DNA of 64,000 nucleotides from Escherichia phage KIT01. Both the position numbers and the translations under genes were made by a program. Numbering within the stretch: position 1 is the first letter of the stretch; each line of letters starts with the position of its first letter. This document shows, piece by piece, positions 10,808-58,689 of this stretch. The stretch lies in the sequence record AP019521.1. One strand, 5' to 3'. Below the pieces are notes generated by a model. The model saw only the letters and a list, made by a program, of their open reading frames with translations, did no database searches and was not told the DNA's origin.

Positions 10808-11422
10808 TCAGTAAGAAAGAACGGAAAGATTCCAAATGGTGTAATTATTCCATTTAGGATTTCTCTCAATAGAGTCTACGCGCAGCGTAGTTCCCGCAGG
10901 GAACATCATCTCATCTTCATCATTGATTAATTGTAAGTTTGCTATACGGGTAGATTCAGGAAATGCGCCTGGGAACTCTTCAGGGGGCGCAGCACATAAC
11001 ATTTTAAAGATTTCTTCCTGATAATTGTACACAAATGGTGCATCATTAATACAAAAGATATTAAATGTTCCATAGAAGTTATAAGATGCAAAATTCCTTG
11101 CCACGTTGAAGTCTTTAGAGAAGCTCATCACGCGGTCGAATTCAATTACCGCACCTACACACATTGTGGATTCTAGATACTTCATAGTCTTTTTAGATAT
11201 GCCGCGATAGAGCTTATCAGGCACTACAGAAGTCAGGTTCTTACGGATGATTTTGTTCAGAGTTTCCTGGATACAATCTGGTTTATTTTCCATGCACTGC
11301 CAGAGGGTACTCTGTTCTAAATCAGAATACACCTCATCAATTTCTATCTGAGTATTCTCACGGAAATCATCGCATTTGACATTGTTGATAAATTCTGCTA
11401 ATTTATGGCTCGGATATAACAT
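10808..11422 (-). CDS. ADP-ribosyltransferase, ModA/ModB-like
   Basis: 204 aa; R-S-E triad candidates (LYRGI, SFSKDFNVARNFA, acidic QEEIF) and T4 mod locus position. Confidence 0.6.
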   Translation of the reverse strand: MLYPSHKLAEFINNVKCDDFRENTQIEIDEVYSDLEQSTLWQCMENKPDCIQETLNKIIRKNLTSVVPDKLYRGISKKTMKYLESTMCVGAVIEFDRVMSFSKDFNVARNFASYNFYGTFNIFCINDAPFVYNYQEEIFKMLCAAPPEEFPGAFPESTRIANLQLINDEDEMMFPAGTTLRVDSIERNPKWNNYTIWNLSVLSY

Positions 11423-11445: not shown

Positions 11446-11477
11446 AGATAGTACCACAAGCTTCCTTGCCTGTAAAC
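11446..11477 (-). promoter_or_regulatory. early promoter cassette
   Basis: gtaaac 11472-11477 with gttgatag...atagta core upstream of modA-like gene. Confidence 0.5.
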
Positions 11478-12046
11478 TAAAAATTCAACATTTTTAAATG
11501 AATTGTTTTGTACTCGATGTCATACGGGTCTCTTTTGATGGTTTCGATTGCAACAATCTCAAATCGTGATAGGCTGGAGACCATGAACTCACATTCAGTT
11601 TCGACCATATCATAGAGGTCAATACGAGTTTCATCAATTTCAAGTTCATCTACATTCCCAGCAAGAACAAGGTCGATAGCATGATTGTAGTAGTCGAAAA
11701 TGAACGGTGCATTCCTGAGACTTAAAATGGTTTTGGTTCCGTATTCCCATGACCCTGCGAACTGACGAGCCTGAGAGTATTGTGTACTAAAAGAAGTAAC
11801 TCGACCAGGAGACCATTGACACCCTACTGAAAGGAGCTCTAATTGCTCAAGTTCTCTGGTGGTAATCCCACGATACAACTCTACCGGAACCGCTGAAGTA
11901 ACATGCTTACGAACCAGTTTGTCGAGGTCGTAATGGAAGTTAGGGTCCTTTTTAGCATCCAGACATTTTTCTAAAAGATTCTGTTCATGTTTTGAGAATT
12001 TGGAATTGATTCGGTCTTGGTAAAGACATTTTTGTTCGATGTTCAT
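11477..12046 (-). CDS. ADP-ribosyltransferase, ModA/ModB-like paralog
   Basis: 189 aa; LYRGIT, SFSTQYSQARQFA; tandem with 10808..11422. Confidence 0.6.
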   Translation of the reverse strand: MNIEQKCLYQDRINSKFSKHEQNLLEKCLDAKKDPNFHYDLDKLVRKHVTSAVPVELYRGITTRELEQLELLSVGCQWSPGRVTSFSTQYSQARQFAGSWEYGTKTILSLRNAPFIFDYYNHAIDLVLAGNVDELEIDETRIDLYDMVETECEFMVSSLSRFEIVAIETIKRDPYDIEYKTIHLKMLNF

Positions 12047-53352: not shown

Positions 53353-53700
53353 CTATTTGCCTTTCGGCCTTAACCGATAGCGATTACCAAAAGCTAAAGC
53401 TCTACGGTTAGTATTATTATTTATAGCTTTTTTAAGCTTACGACAATAAGAATAGAACACGTCGTTAAAATTATGCTCAACCCAATTCCTCTGTATAGGC
53501 GAGGTAATGGAAAGCATATAATGCGCTTTAATTAAATCCATCCCATTTTTATTAGGACATTCTTTATTATTAGCATTATATGTCGCTGCTACAACCTCTA
53601 TCTCTCTTTTGTAAGCCACATCATCCATGATAGGCGAAAGAACAATATAAGAAATGGCCACAGCGAACGCTAGAATTAAAATCTTTGAATTTAGGTCCAT
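53353..53700 (-). CDS. hypothetical membrane-anchored protein
   Basis: 115 aa with N-terminal hydrophobic segment. Confidence 0.4.
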   Translation of the reverse strand: MDLNSKILILAFAVAISYIVLSPIMDDVAYKREIEVVAATYNANNKECPNKNGMDLIKAHYMLSITSPIQRNWVEHNFNDVFYSYCRKLKKAINNNTNRRALAFGNRYRLRPKGK

Positions 53701-53707
53701 AGTACCC

Positions 53708-54280
53708 TCAACTCGTTATTTCTATCCAGTGCTTCCTGCACAATGACACGTAAGAATCGTTGCCACCTATAGAAACTTGGGCGCCGTCCTTAATTGCGAT
53801 ACCATCCTGGACCCTAGCAGTCATAGTAGCTTTACGGCCACAATGGCACACACCTTTGTACTCAACGAGTTTATCTGCTGTAGCGAGTAATTCAGCAGAG
53901 CCAGGAAACAGTTTACCCTGAAAATCAGTTCTTAGCCCGTAGCACATAACCGGGACATTATAATTGTCTACTATCTTTGCCAGTTGTTTTATCTGTGCAG
54001 GTTCTAAGAACTGTGCTTCATCCACAAATACACAGTGGATATCTTTTTGAGATTCAGCCCAACGATAGAACTCGTATAGGTCCATATCCGGAGTCACGGC
54101 ATTAGCCTCTTGACTAATCCCTATACGAGACGAAATGGTATGGCTTGATTCTCTATTGTCTATCGCAGGCTTTAAAAGGAGTACGCCCATACCGCGTTCT
54201 TTGTAGTTATGAGCGGCCGTTAGCAATGAAGCAGTTTTCCCGGAATTCATTGCCGCATAGTGAAAATAAAGTTGAGCCAT
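53708..54280 (-). CDS. tk: thymidine kinase
   Basis: 190 aa; YAAMNSGKTASLL, CHCGRKA zinc motif, collinear with T4 Tk. Confidence 0.9.
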   Translation of the reverse strand: MAQLYFHYAAMNSGKTASLLTAAHNYKERGMGVLLLKPAIDNRESSHTISSRIGISQEANAVTPDMDLYEFYRWAESQKDIHCVFVDEAQFLEPAQIKQLAKIVDNYNVPVMCYGLRTDFQGKLFPGSAELLATADKLVEYKGVCHCGRKATMTARVQDGIAIKDGAQVSIGGNDSYVSLCRKHWIEITS

Positions 54281-54289
54281 ATTACCTTC

Positions 54290-54496
54290 TTAAAGACTAT
54301 TTACATAAGCAATTAATTCGTTTTCTTTCTCATCAAATCGATTAGCAAATTCTTCCAAATGGTCGGCATCTATCGGGCCATATTCATCATAAAAGGCATT
54401 TGCTTCCGTATGCTCATCCAAAAGCTCATGGATAAGCTCAAACAATTTATCTTTCTGTTCTTTACTCAGACTCATAACCATTGTACCTTTAAGCAA
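54290..54496 (-). CDS. hypothetical protein
   Basis: 68-aa acidic ORF. Confidence 0.4.
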   Translation of the reverse strand: MLKGTMVMSLSKEQKDKLFELIHELLDEHTEANAFYDEYGPIDADHLEEFANRFDEKENELIAYVNSL

Positions 54497-54684
54497 TATT
54501 CTTCTACGTGCTGTTTACGTTTATTTTTATCTATAAAAGTATATTCAACATATTCGCCAATATACCATTTATCGGTGTTGTGTTGACTTTTTATAGGACA
54601 TTTAGTTACTCGAGTTTCGGTCCAGCGTCGAATAATTTCCGCTTTGTTTTTAGGGTCAAACGGATGTGGGTAATGGGCTTTCAT
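54472..54684 (-). CDS. hypothetical protein
   Basis: 70-aa ORF. Confidence 0.4.
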   Translation of the reverse strand: MKAHYPHPFDPKNKAEIIRRWTETRVTKCPIKSQHNTDKWYIGEYVEYTFIDKNKRKQHVEEYCLKVQWL

Positions 54685-55123
54685 AATCTACCACCACTAA
54701 ATTAATATCAGGAGTAAACAAATTAATCAATTGGTAAACCTTGTCCCAATCACCACCAGCAATACCACAACCAATGCGAGGGATATAAATTCTTGGTTTA
54801 AACAAAAGACCTTTTGCTTGTTGATTTAATTCTATCATACAGTTTACTAAAGCGCCGTAATCAAGATTAGGGCCTGGTTCGTATTGGGTATATAAATTAT
54901 AGCAAATTTGGCCATTATTACCTGTAGCTTGAGTAAACGTGCCAAGTTTTGCCAAATTACCTAAATAAGTAGTTTTATCGATAGCGAGAATAGGCGGATA
55001 AGCCTTAGCCAATTGCCCAGCTACACCTGAACCCATCGTGTGGAAACAGTTACACCCGTGTGCAACATTATTACCTTGAAGAAACAGGGCGACGATATCG
55101 CCCTTAATATAATCAATAATCAT
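54656..55123 (-). CDS. macrodomain (ADP-ribose binding/processing) protein
   Basis: 155 aa; N-terminal GDIVALFL..NNVAHGCNCFHTMGSGVAGQLA resembles macro domain GDIT..DAIVNAAN...GGGV signature. Confidence 0.5.
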   Translation of the reverse strand: MIIDYIKGDIVALFLQGNNVAHGCNCFHTMGSGVAGQLAKAYPPILAIDKTTYLGNLAKLGTFTQATGNNGQICYNLYTQYEPGPNLDYGALVNCMIELNQQAKGLLFKPRIYIPRIGCGIAGGDWDKVYQLINLFTPDINLVVVDYESPLPTSV

Positions 55124-55476
55124 TTAGAGTTTAATCCTCGATTGTATGAGTCAACGAGTCTGTCTACCATAGACGCGCACATTTCTTTGTACTTTTTATC
55201 AGATGGAATACATTCAGTAACGTTTAGACGTTGCTCGTATCTTTTAGAAAGGGTTTTCTCTTTCATTCGGCGATGCTCTACGTCGTTCTGGCCATCTTTA
55301 AAAGCAGCTGTGATTTTTGAACTGAATTCGATAATGCATTCAGTATTACTCGGATGACAATAATCTTTTGCTGTACGGGTAGCATACTCGACAATTGAAT
55401 TATTACTATCATCAACTTGTGACGCTAATACTCCCGGAGCAATCAACATAAGCGCTATAGTCATCTGCTTAATCAT
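55120..55476 (-). CDS. secreted protein
   Basis: 118 aa with signal peptide. Confidence 0.4.
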   Translation of the reverse strand: MIKQMTIALMLIAPGVLASQVDDSNNSIVEYATRTAKDYCHPSNTECIIEFSSKITAAFKDGQNDVEHRRMKEKTLSKRYEQRLNVTECIPSDKKYKEMCASMVDRLVDSYNRGLNSK

Positions 55477-56016
55477 TTAATACACCGCCTCAAACATCTT
55501 TTTAGATTTTAGGTAATTGGCCTTTTCTAGAACTTCAGAAGCATATTTACTGCCTGCTTTGACGTTCCAGCCTGCATTATAAGAAGCAATCGCTTTTCTC
55601 AGGTCACCTTTGTGAACATCAATCCAATAAGACAGTTCAATGTAGGCCCAAGAGGCACTGTTCTGTCGTTTTTGGACCATACGAATTATTTCTTTGTCTG
55701 ACATCTTCCAACCTACCTGTTGAACACGACTTCTTAACGTAGGCAAGTAATTTTGGAACATGCCATAAGCATGGTGCTTATCTTTATTTAAACCCTGATT
55801 AATTCCGGCGGATGATTCCTGCCATAGTAATCCGGCCATAATATATCCTAATCCTTTTTGATTAGGGTTTTCTTTGAACTTTCCCGACTTTTGGTATTGT
55901 TCACCGAAAGCATACGCATAATGTAAATTATCGAGTTGTTCATTACTGAAAGTAGGCTCTACGCTATAGGCAGACATACTAACTGTCAATAGTAAAGTGG
56001 CTAATACTTTTTTCAT
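55477..56016 (-). CDS. secreted lytic transglycosylase-like protein
   Basis: 179 aa; signal peptide; E-S (WQESS), GMFQ and SYNAG motifs typical of SLT domain. Confidence 0.5.
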   Translation of the reverse strand: MKKVLATLLLTVSMSAYSVEPTFSNEQLDNLHYAYAFGEQYQKSGKFKENPNQKGLGYIMAGLLWQESSAGINQGLNKDKHHAYGMFQNYLPTLRSRVQQVGWKMSDKEIIRMVQKRQNSASWAYIELSYWIDVHKGDLRKAIASYNAGWNVKAGSKYASEVLEKANYLKSKKMFEAVY

Positions 56017-56028
56017 GAGACCTCATTA

Positions 56029-56487
56029 TTAAAGATAGATTACTTTCGTGCTGGTTTTACCTTCTAAACGTTTAGAGTTAACAAATGCCATACGACATTT
56101 AAGGGAATATCCTTTATCAGGATGTTTACGGTCTACGGTCATACCCAACCATAAGGTTTTATCGGTAATTTCGAGACGCAACGGGCGATACACTTTACCA
56201 GGGACAATTTCGGATTCAACATCAGGCAGAGGTTCCTGGATTAAGAATTCATGAATTTCTTTAACATGGATATGGAGTTGCTTGAATAAAGCAAAAACGT
56301 ATTTTTCGTCGATTTCACGTTGGATAGCACGGTCCAACAAGTGATTAGAGTACTTAATAAAGAAGGCTGGGACTCCGCTCTTAATGGCGGCTTTTTTGAT
56401 GGACGCATTCAGTTCACGGAATTCGGTTTCGAACTGACGACGTAATTTGTTGCGGCGGATGAATACTTCTGAATTAATTTCTGACAT
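56029..56487 (-). CDS. regB: endoribonuclease RegB
   Basis: 152 aa; EVFIRRNKLRR.FE.EFR..N, HLLDRAIQREIDE.YVF, RLEITD..LWLG matches T4 RegB. Confidence 0.9.
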   Translation of the reverse strand: MSEINSEVFIRRNKLRRQFETEFRELNASIKKAAIKSGVPAFFIKYSNHLLDRAIQREIDEKYVFALFKQLHIHVKEIHEFLIQEPLPDVESEIVPGKVYRPLRLEITDKTLWLGMTVDRKHPDKGYSLKCRMAFVNSKRLEGKTSTKVIYL

Positions 56488-56493
56488 TTTGTA

Positions 56494-56544
56494 ATCTCCT
56501 GTAGATGATAGGTCTATAGTACCACGTCTACAGGAGATGTAAAC
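56494..56544 (-). promoter_or_regulatory. early promoter/stem-loop cassette upstream of regB
   Basis: gtaaac 56539-56544; 12-bp perfect inverted repeat 56494-56505 / 56527-56538 containing the regB SD. Confidence 0.6.
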
Positions 56545-56550
56545 TGCTTT

Positions 56551-56832
56551 TTAGTATTTCTCTTCAGGTCGGAAAACACCGCGACAAGCCCACATAGAAG
56601 CTTCTTTCAAACGGTCTTTGGCCTTAGACAGACAATCAGATGCAAAGAGTACCGGGTCCAACTCTTCTTCTGGGGTGGAAGAGCTGTTGGCTAGTCGATT
56701 ATATTCTTCGATAATCTCGTCTTCAAGCGCTTTAAAGATTAAACCCAATCGAACTTCAGCGTCTTTGATAGCATTCACTTTACTGATTTTATCGTCGGTA
56801 TGTGGTTTATAACCCTTGATATCTTCAATCAT
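56551..56832 (-). CDS. hypothetical protein
   Basis: 93-aa ORF. Confidence 0.4.
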   Translation of the reverse strand: MIEDIKGYKPHTDDKISKVNAIKDAEVRLGLIFKALEDEIIEEYNRLANSSSTPEEELDPVLFASDCLSKAKDRLKEASMWACRGVFRPEEKY

Positions 56833-57047
56833 TTCACTTCCTCATCAGATGCAATATCATATTCAACTAAATGAAGCCCATCATATCCACCACGAACAGA
56901 GATATATGTGTTTGGATAAACGGTTTCTTTACCATTCCATTGACCACTGTCCCAGCATTCCAGAAAGTCTTGTTCACCTTGGCCATGGAACCAATCAACA
57001 AACACCTTCAAAGCCTCATCAGAACCTTCAATAGTCAATTTAGACAT
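56829..57047 (-). CDS. hypothetical protein
   Basis: 72-aa ORF. Confidence 0.4.
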   Translation of the reverse strand: MSKLTIEGSDEALKVFVDWFHGQGEQDFLECWDSGQWNGKETVYPNTYISVRGGYDGLHLVEYDIASDEEVK

Positions 57048-57384
57048 ATTTTTTCCAGTCAGAAATCATATGAATCTCTTGGTCATAAGTCAAGAGACTG
57101 CGAGTAATAATACCCTTACAAGGCCCTGAGATGAACTCGAGGGTGAAGTAAGGAACCTGTTTCATTAATCGGATGCTTGGGGCATGGCATCTAAAACGAG
57201 AGCCCTTAAAGGGTCCTGTCATGAACACGTATTCTAGTGGATAGAAATAAGCATATTCGAAATTTTTAGTAAGGTCCTCTCTTCGAACCTTACGTGAGAA
57301 ATAACAGAACTCAAAAAGTTCTTCATCAGTCATCATTGCATTCCTATCACAAAGAACAGAGGCAAAGGCTTGTCGCCTTGGCAC
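57040..57384 (-). CDS. hypothetical protein
   Basis: 114-aa ORF. Confidence 0.4.
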   Translation of the reverse strand: MPRRQAFASVLCDRNAMMTDEELFEFCYFSRKVRREDLTKNFEYAYFYPLEYVFMTGPFKGSRFRCHAPSIRLMKQVPYFTLEFISGPCKGIITRSLLTYDQEIHMISDWKKYV

Positions 57385-57860
57385 ATAAATTTATTAATCA
57401 TTATCTGGTAAGCTTCGTAGAACTTATCCATCGCTGGAAGGCGCATCGGCTCTTCGATAATAATCAATAATCTAGTAACAGATAGTCCACGATACTTATG
57501 GAAATTGTCTTCATCAAGGAAACTGCGCACAGTATCATAGACAACAAAACCGGGACCTTCGACTTGGAGATGTGGGTGTGCCTTAGAAACCTGTTTTATT
57601 ATATTACAAATTTCTCGCGAGCGATGCGAACTACTTGACATAACAATCACATCATTACCTTTGGAAACCCAATCGGCTGCGAACTGAGCAAGGGCACTTG
57701 TTTTACCTGTTTGTCGACCACCATCAAGACGAAGAGTACCAAACTCTTGCATTCTTGAAGCAGGTTCATACCAGGTATATTGGTCTGAGTCTAAACGTTC
57801 AATGGCGCGTTCAGCGAAGGCGTGCATTAAGGTTAGATAAATAGGGGTTAAAAATTTCAT
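57333..57860 (-). CDS. P-loop NTPase-like protein
   Basis: 175 aa; GGRQTGKTSA Walker A-like, IIIEEP Walker B-like. Confidence 0.45.
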   Translation of the reverse strand: MKFLTPIYLTLMHAFAERAIERLDSDQYTWYEPASRMQEFGTLRLDGGRQTGKTSALAQFAADWVSKGNDVIVMSSSSHRSREICNIIKQVSKAHPHLQVEGPGFVVYDTVRSFLDEDNFHKYRGLSVTRLLIIIEEPMRLPAMDKFYEAYQIMINKFMCQGDKPLPLFFVIGMQ

Positions 57861-58021
57861 AGGTGTCTCTTAGTTGGTGGGGCCGTTCCTTGGCACATAA
57901 TTCATCCATGTATCCGTATGTAAACCCTTTACCGCACTTGGGCTCGACCTTATTACAGGTAGGGAAAGGTCCATCACTCAGAGGACGCGACGTTCATGAG
58001 GAGAGGGCCGGCTTGCCTTTA

Positions 58022-58321
58022 TTAGAAAGAACCAGAACCTTTAATTGTGTTCTGACGACCTTTATTTTCCAATTCGGAGTGGTCGATTTCATATGCTTGT
58101 GCTACGCCAAAGGCCTTTTTAACTTTAGCTAAAGAACCTTTAGATGTAACAATATTAAAAGTATTACCTTTGGTAAAATCAACCAAATCCACTTGTACAC
58201 CCTGCTTGCCGAGGCTTGCTACAATAGCATCAACATATTGTTGGTCTAAAGTACCTTGGACGCCAATTTGAAATGCTTTAGGAGCTTTGGCTTCTGTAAT
58301 AAATTCTTGATAAGTTTTCAT
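58022..58321 (-). CDS. internal protein (IP-like) with capsid targeting sequence
   Basis: N-terminus MKTYQEFITEA = T4 IP capsid-targeting leader MKTYQEFIAE. Confidence 0.7.
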   Translation of the reverse strand: MKTYQEFITEAKAPKAFQIGVQGTLDQQYVDAIVASLGKQGVQVDLVDFTKGNTFNIVTSKGSLAKVKKAFGVAQAYEIDHSELENKGRQNTIKGSGSF

Positions 58322-58329
58322 ATTAAGCC

Positions 58330-58689
58330 TTAAAGATGGTCTAGTGCTGGGTTATGAGGTTTTTCTGCTTTAGTAGTGTTTTTATGCCAATCTGATTTAG
58401 AAACACGGATGGCATCAGCGCCATAAGAACTCTTAAGGAGACCTTTTTTATTGTACACGCTTATTGAAGTAAGAGAATCACCATTCCATGTAGCATGAAT
58501 GAAGTTAGATTTAGATTTAAGTTCTTTAGCCAAGCTCTGGTTAGTGGCCATGGAAGCAAAGTCTTTACCTGTAACTTTAAAAACTTCAGATGGGTTCAGC
58601 CCTTCTTTAGCCTTAGCCAATTGTTCAGGAGACATAGCTTCGTTAATGCGCTGAGTAGATTCAGTAATAAATTGTTGGTAAGTTTTCAT
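58330..58689 (-). CDS. internal protein (IP-like) with capsid targeting sequence
   Basis: N-terminus MKTYQQFITES. Confidence 0.7.
   Translation of the reverse strand: MKTYQQFITESTQRINEAMSPEQLAKAKEGLNPSEVFKVTGKDFASMATNQSLAKELKSKSNFIHATWNGDSLTSISVYNKKGLLKSSYGADAIRVSKSDWHKNTTKAEKPHNPALDHL

Follow-up and report, generated by a model that had tools for sequence, protein, structure and literature searches.

Which ADP-ribose modification does a small, stand-alone macrodomain protein of a T-even phage act on? In the window, i.e. the 64,000-nucleotide stretch of the Escherichia phage KIT01 sequence (AP019521.1) that was analyzed, the ORF listing shows a single minus-strand reading frame at 54656..55123, which translates into a protein of 155 aa with the N-terminus MIIDYIKGDIVALFLQGNNVAHGCNCFHTMGSGVAGQ. 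The original prediction, made from the sequence alone, read this protein as a macrodomain and proposed that it could reverse or regulate ADP-ribosylation by ModA/ModB-like enzymes of the same phage, detoxify ADP-ribose-based host defence signals or act on DNA ADP-ribosylation.

Identity and neighbourhood of the gene

The 2.4-kb region around the ORF shares 96-98% DNA identity with the Escherichia phages WG01, Bp7, IME08, JS10 and QL01, and IME08 is classified as Dhakavirus, Tevenvirinae; by DNA identity, the window is that of a Dhakavirus-type T-even phage. Related records label the ORF tk.4, with the product given as 'hypothetical protein' or 'phosphatase', and a tblastn comparison gives 99% identity to Bp7 tk.4. 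T4 Tk.4, listed as ORF 60.5 in the T4 sequence from 1986 (X04567.1) and also known as AdfM (anti-DarT factor Macrodomain), is 52.9% identical to the window protein over residues 1-151 (97% of the length, E 2e-50). Both proteins consist of 155 aa, are encoded between the same neighbours and share the same His, Asn, Gln and Gly active-site residues. Judged by homology and synteny, T4 tk.4 (adfM) has its Dhakavirus orthologue in this ORF. The gene family and its counter-defence role in T4 are already described, and near-identical proteins are present in GenBank as tk.4; the note in the tk.4 record of Aeromonas phage 25 recognized an A1pp/macro protein two decades ago. The window protein also matches PHROG 335 (E 4.8e-67), and homologues are found in 2,733 phage records covering more than 50 host genera, including phages of Pseudomonas, Vibrio and Acinetobacter.

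Compared with T4 Tk.4, the window allele is divergent: the second Gly-rich loop reads PRIGCGIAGGDW in the window protein and PRIGAGIGKGNW in T4, and the loop at residues 62-75 differs. The tk.4 alleles of the Tequatrovirus phages teqsoen, RB3 and Aplg8 encode proteins that are 76-77% identical to the Dhakavirus protein of the window, and those of T4 and RB32 are 53% identical to it; these distinct identity bands suggest that alleles have been exchanged among the T-even phages or have diverged rapidly there. For Shigella phage SHFML-26, Citrobacter phage CkP1, Klebsiella phage vB_Kpn_AM_K2 and Citrobacter phage CF1, the deposited genomes list Tk.4 proteins shortened to 92-130 aa, which could reflect truncated genes or mis-called starts.

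The gene order in the window, regB, vs.1, vs, tk.4, tk.3, tk.x, tk, is that of T4, in which vs likewise directly precedes tk.4. RegB was identified by Pfam REGB_T4 (E 3e-68), vs.1 by PHROG 600, the valyl-tRNA synthetase modifier vs (55120..55476, minus strand) by PHROG 1256 (E 3e-34) and tk.3 (54472..54684, minus strand) by Pfam DUF7202 (positions 1-70 of 70, E 2.5e-37); tk.x is a tk.1/tk.2-like ORF with DUF7438 and is followed by the thymidine kinase gene tk. The vs stop codon overlaps the tk.4 start in an ATGA at 55120-55123, and tk.3 starts 29 nt within the 3' end of tk.4 (54656-54684). The tk.3 profile match is full-length from residue 1, and a 29-nt tk.4/tk.3 overlap is also annotated in phage teqsoen; in T4 the overlap is 4 nt. 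Over this 3' end the window protein has the C-terminus ...ESPLPTSV, of which residues 153-155 have a pLDDT below 50 in the AlphaFold2 model. Because its start overlaps the vs stop and tk.3 starts 29 nt inside it, tk.4 is part of a tightly packed same-strand block in the early region. A consensus scan of 53500-58500 gave 13 promoter-like sites compared to 14.3 expected from shuffled sequence and is uninformative with respect to tk.4 transcription. At this locus, the family assignments cover tk.4 and the named neighbours; the mechanical ORF list also includes overlapping and antisense ORFs, e.g. 55040..55357 on the plus strand.

Macrodomain fold and class

The protein matches Pfam Macro (PF01661) with 33.4 bits (gathering cut-off 22; E 4.9e-8) over profile positions 2-117 of 118. 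An AlphaFold2 model built from an alignment of 59 phage homologues, which are 35-97% identical to the query, has a mean pLDDT of 95 and a pTM of 0.89, and the predicted fold is a three-layer alpha/beta/alpha arrangement with a mixed central sheet. In total, Pfam, PHROG 335 and the predicted fold bear out the macrodomain call of the original prediction, and the motifs that it quoted are present as GDIV at residues 8-11, NNVAHGCN at residues 18-25 and MGSGVAGQ at residues 30-37. Of the checks that it had proposed, structure prediction gave a positive outcome: both AlphaFold2 and Foldseek return a macrodomain fold, and the Gly-rich loops are intact on alignment.

The first of these loops, MGSGVAG (codons 30-36; 55016..55036, minus strand), is by its conservation a putative binding site for ADP-ribose and its phosphates: G31 and G33 do not vary among Tk.4, BT1257, SCO6735, TARG1, DarG and PhiKZ gp104 in a MAFFT alignment of eight proteins, and G33 and A35 are invariant among the 59 phage homologues. 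The second loop, IGCGIAGG (codons 117-124; 54752..54775, minus strand), is a putative phosphate-binding loop on the same grounds, with G118 and G120 invariant in the phage alignment; it reads PRIGCGIAGGDW in the window protein, a nearly identical PRIGCGLAGGTW in SCO6735 and PRIGCGLDRLQW in TARG1.

In a Foldseek comparison with the PDB, the macrodomains of TARG1, Poa1p, BT1257 and DarG lead with E 6e-10 to 2e-7, and TARG1 (4J5S) is the top match (E 6e-10, TM 0.76-0.83). Similarly, a profile search of PDB sequences returned BT1257 (6.5e-21), TARG1 (5e-18), SCO6735 (1e-17), Poa1p (3e-14) and DarG (2.5e-11 and 9e-10). From these two rankings, in which the nearest neighbours are members of the class that comprises TARG1, DarG, SCO6735/BT1257, Poa1p and ALC1, we assign the protein at the level of sequence and predicted structure to the ALC1/TARG1-like class. 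The MacroD/YmdB class, which is implied by database labels of the type 'O-acetyl-ADP-ribose deacetylase (regulator of RNase III)', was rejected given that the nearest relatives are ALC1/TARG1-like.

A glutamine at the position of the catalytic lysine

His22 and Asn25 lie in the HGCN motif (codons 22-25; 55049..55060, minus strand) and correspond to His24 and Asn27 of SCO6735; Asn25 is also the equivalent of Asn23 in PhiKZ AdfM. Codon 80 (CAA; 54884..54886, minus strand) encodes Gln80, which aligns with the catalytic lysine, i.e. K84 of TARG1, K80 of DarG and the Lys of the FPTK motif in PhiKZ gp104, and with Gln85 of SCO6735. Three alignments agree on this placement: the HMMER profile alignment to TARG1, the MAFFT alignment of the eight proteins and an hhalign comparison of the 59 phage homologues with a DarG-type alignment. 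T4 Tk.4 also carries Gln at this position (LYTQ), as do BT1257 and SCO6735 (MIGQ). The Lys84/Asp125 dyad of human TARG1 (OARD1) is absent from the window protein, in which the profile and MAFFT alignments place Gln80 and Ala122 at these positions.

His22, Asn25, Gln80 and Gly120 are invariant in the 59 phage homologues and align with H24, N27, Q85 and G128 of SCO6735, which together make up a Gln-type constellation. Gln80 is moreover conserved in each of 80 bacterial homologues. The search patterns by which the bacterial loci were retrieved included H22, N25, G118 and G120 but not Gln80, and the conservation of these four residues is therefore taken from the phage alignment. The exchange of Gln for Lys in this active site, as read from the alignments, is, together with an ancestry distinct from that of PhiKZ AdfM and DarG, the one point that is not obviously in the literature.

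The SCO6735 protein provides a precedent for activity with this constellation. Both in vitro and in cells, SCO6735 cleaves the thymidine-ADP-ribose made by DarT, the Q85A and Q85E substitutions abolish cleavage of dT-ADPr, the N27S and G128E substitutions lower activity, and a water-initiated mechanism that proceeds without a catalytic lysine was proposed (PMC9411070). In the same study, TARG1 was also found to reverse DNA ADP-ribosylation by DarT, and reversal of dT-ADPr was argued to be a unifying activity of the ALC1-like class (PMC9411070).

SCO6735 (Streptomyces coelicolor, PDB 5E3B) and BT1257 (Bacteroides, 2FG1/2AFC) are Gln-type ALC1-like proteins with approximately 27% identity to the window protein, and they differ from it in that they have Lys89 and Lys93 in a longer mobile loop, the mark of the bacterial subclass. 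In the MAFFT alignment, the loop after Gln80 is approximately 6 residues shorter in the window protein than in SCO6735 and BT1257, and Ser32 occupies the position of Lys34, so that the extended loop and Lys34, which are defined as DNA contacts of SCO6735 (PMC9411070), are both missing. The window protein is also mildly acidic (pI 5.5) in comparison with the basic SCO6735 (pI 9.5). Net charge was considered as an argument against activity on DNA and rejected because an active enzyme, PhiKZ gp104, is more acidic still (pI 5.05).

Two lineages under the name AdfM

The DarG2 macrodomains (Thermus aquaticus 5M31/5M3E, Mycobacterium tuberculosis 5M3I) have Lys80 where the window protein has Gln80 and Asn where it has His22. 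Moreover, DarG2 has a domain for DarT binding at its C-terminus and its gene lies beside darT, whereas the window protein is a single domain of 155 aa encoded between vs and tk.3, and both the MAFFT and the hhalign alignments show that the position of Lys80 is not occupied by Lys. Because it departs from DarG2 in these three respects (Lys80, the DarT-binding domain and the linkage to darT), T-even Tk.4, which probably acts like DarG2, looks by sequence as if it was recruited from a different branch.

PhiKZ gp104 is also a stand-alone phage macrodomain that counters DarTG2, and it shares the conserved Asn (N23 in gp104, N25 in the window protein). It was independently named AdfM and was shown to strip a TNTC oligonucleotide of the ADP-ribose placed on it by DarT2 in vitro, and the N23A substitution lowers this activity (PMC13309987, Cell Rep 2026); it is the only phage AdfM with dT-ADPr hydrolase biochemistry. 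However, gp104 belongs to a DarG-type lineage: it keeps the FPTK Lys, and its match to the DarG of M. tuberculosis has E 9e-25, with none to BT1257, SCO6735 or TARG1 at E<=1. The window protein, in contrast, best matches BT1257 and SCO6735, is without the FPTK Lys and is 20% identical to gp104 (pairwise E 1e-3). We therefore rejected the idea that it is a PhiKZ-type, biochemically characterized AdfM. As judged by these alignments, the name AdfM covers two unrelated lineages that were apparently recruited independently, i.e. the Gln-type, BT1257/SCO6735-like T4 Tk.4 and the Lys-type, DarG-like PhiKZ gp104.

Probable counter-defence against DarTG2

The functional evidence comes from T4. In a transposon library of T4 challenged on E. 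coli with DarTG2 (HIDEN-SEQ), tk.4 was the single significant, conditionally essential gene, and a clean tk.4 knockout was sensitized to DarTG2; the gene was renamed adfM, and removal of ADP-ribose from DNA was proposed by the authors from the genetics (bioRxiv 10.1101/2025.11.20.689424). In earlier work, T2 and T4 that lack the NADAR enzyme AdfN stayed resistant to DarTG2, implying a second factor (PMC11825919), and the Tk.4 protein was detected in the proteome of T2-infected cells (bioRxiv 10.64898/2026.06.19.733364). Among the roles listed by the original prediction, the one on DNA ADP-ribosylation and DarTG thus has the support of published genetics, and T4 Tk.4 most likely protects the phage by removing ADP-ribose from phage DNA.

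Combining these data with the macrodomain identity and fold, the class, the orthology and synteny and the Gln-type constellation observed here, we infer both a protective effect of the window allele against DarTG2 and a hydrolytic basis for this effect. Specifically, we consider it likely that tk.4 encodes an early-region, stand-alone ADP-ribosylglycohydrolase that removes the ADP-ribose added by DarT2 to thymidines in single-stranded DNA, and that it does so by SCO6735-like, Gln-dependent chemistry. In this model, (i) on a host with DarTG2, DarT2 would ADP-ribosylate thymidines in single-stranded phage DNA and block replication, (ii) the macrodomain would bind the ADP-ribose moiety by means of its two Gly-rich loops, (iii) it would hydrolyse the bond between thymine and ribose and restore the DNA, and (iv) catalysis would probably proceed as suggested for SCO6735, with a water positioned by Gln80 and with His22, Asn25 and Gly120, and probably not by the Lys-dependent chemistry of DarG and TARG1. 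Several points count against this model: the window and T4 alleles share only 53% identity, the DNA contacts of SCO6735 are not kept, the evidence from T4 consists of the phenotype of a knockout, described in a preprint, and phage enzyme data come only from the DarG-type PhiKZ gp104.

Alternatively, the main effect of Tk.4 on DarTG2 could be non-catalytic, with DarT2 bound and inhibited or the ADP-ribosylated DNA shielded. Such an effect has a precedent in the catalytically dead SCO6735 Q85A, which still inhibited DarT in vitro and did so more strongly than DarG K80A and TARG1 K84A (PMC9411070); it is also compatible with the use of a deletion rather than a catalytic mutant in the T4 genetics and with the loss of the DNA-contact lysines of SCO6735 from the window protein. 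However, the protein is a bare macrodomain of 155 aa without the C-terminal DarT-binding domain of DarG2, and all catalytic residues of SCO6735 are invariant among phage homologues whose identity to the query is no more than 35-97%; because these residues are invariant across such divergent homologues, selection appears to act on catalysis. We regard a mainly non-catalytic role as unlikely.

A role in processing a small ADP-ribose derivative, i.e. ADP-ribose-1''-phosphate, O-acetyl-ADP-ribose or a Thoeris-type cyclic ADPR signal, appears similarly improbable. It would draw on the general similarity of the fold and on a partial match to the Poa1p residues probed by deposited mutants (His23, Ser30 and Phe152) and on nothing else. 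Phe152 of Poa1p corresponds to Ala122 in the window protein, the 'phosphatase' labels in the databases, which go back to the ADP-ribose-1''-phosphate reading, are transferred by homology, and sensitivity to DarTG2 is the only known phenotype of the T4 orthologue. Weak Appr-1''-p phosphatase activity is a generic in vitro property of many macrodomains.

Finally, Tk.4 could erase or tune the marks made by the phage's own Alt, ModA and ModB, either ADP-ribosylated arginine in proteins or the RNAylation by ModB. The two ModA/ModB-like genes on which this part of the original prediction drew do exist in the window as tandem ORFs at 10808..11422 and 11477..12046 on the minus strand (PHROG 832, 'RNA polymerase ADP-ribosylase', E 2e-44 and 4e-37; no Pfam match at E<=0.01). 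Although the Glu/Asp esters of ADP-ribosylated proteins are further substrates of SCO6735 and TARG1 (PMC9411070), this is the least likely of the roles listed and we deem it highly improbable, because ModA targets Arg265 of the RNA polymerase alpha subunit and Arg-ADPr is a substrate of DraG/ARH-type hydrolases, MacroD/TARG1-like macrodomains cleaving ester-linked Asp/Glu modifications and OAADPr but not Arg-ADPr (PMC8120803), and because insertions in T4 tk.4 were depleted only under DarTG2 challenge (bioRxiv 10.1101/2025.11.20.689424); in addition, tk.4 lies approximately 43 kb from modA/modB rather than being co-located with them, and its homologues are spread over many phage groups (the 2,733 records above).

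If Tk.4 acts as a DarT2-directed hydrolase, it illustrates a principle of counter-defence in which phages carry erasers of DNA ADP-ribosylation: in T4, AdfN deals with the guanosine marks of DarT1, and Tk.4/AdfM would deal with the thymidine marks of DarT2. The labels 'phosphatase' or 'hypothetical protein' in thousands of phage records could then be replaced by 'anti-DarTG2 macrodomain (AdfM, Tk.4-type)'. Given that the family is already described, the residual interest of the locus is in the Gln-type chemistry and in an ancestry separate from those of PhiKZ AdfM and DarG. With a Gln-type site, T-even phages are predicted to lie outside the reach of inhibitors or escape routes that target the lysine chemistry of DarG.

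Bacterial relatives and ancestry

Relatives with approximately 32-43% identity are encoded in at least 543 bacterial species genomes (one genome per species was scanned). The 80 bacterial loci that were fetched encode the relatives as stand-alone ORFs (median 155 aa), and every one has the Gln. A DarT2 homologue was found within approximately 4 kb in 0 of these 80 loci (tblastn, best E 2.2) with a single query, P. aeruginosa DarT2, by which very divergent DarT proteins could be missed. The sampled neighbours are housekeeping genes, namely ileS, rpoC (Ruegeria), rpoD (once) and the nicotinate phosphoribosyltransferase gene pncB (twice).

The recurrent upstream genes are ileS, in Hyphomicrobiaceae and Jannaschia, and rpoC. 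A functional link between vs, the modifier of valyl-tRNA synthetase, and the gene for a class-I tRNA synthetase that precedes many of the bacterial homologues was considered and rejected as coincidence: by NCBIfam the bacterial gene is ileS and not valS, and the ileS block represents one conserved synteny within Hyphomicrobiaceae and Rhodobacteraceae, which counts against the link.

A broader scenario is offered tentatively and falls somewhat short of being probable. According to this scenario, the AdfM of T-even phages would not be a captured DarG2 antitoxin but a member of a Lys-less, Gln-type branch of ALC1-like proteins whose bacterial relatives are stand-alone chromosomal genes rather than partners in toxin-antitoxin pairs, T-even and PhiKZ-like phages would have recruited two lineages with different chemistries to counter a single defence, the T-even protein may be a general eraser of ADP-ribose on nucleic acids and proteins with a range of substrates wider than the products of DarTG2, and its expression may be tuned by a hairpin at codons 7-13.

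A hairpin within tk.4

This hairpin is GC-rich, lies at 55086..55104 on the minus strand, has the sequence AGGGCGAU-AUC-GUCGCCCU followed by a U-rich stretch, and was scored as terminator-like in the scan; its stem comprises 8 bp in both the MFE and the centroid structures. It may serve as an attenuator or terminator for the vs transcript from upstream, as an element of mRNA stability or as a brake on translation. No stem-loop is annotated in ORF 60.5 in the 1986 T4 record (X04567.1), and the hairpin is absent from the homologues of Aeromonas, Klebsiella and Acinetobacter phages that were examined. T4, teqsoen, Krischvirus GEC-3S and a Vequintavirus carry it at the equivalent codons, with 7-9 bp. 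When synonymous codons were resampled with the window's own codon usage, 5000 recodings each yielded 4 structures as stable for the window, 2 for T4 and 1 for the Vequintavirus, and the count over the phages ranged from 1 to 13 in 5000. In the Vequintavirus, one C:G pair of the stem is replaced by A:U in a compensatory manner by means of a synonymous change in a Gly codon together with an Ala-to-Ser substitution.
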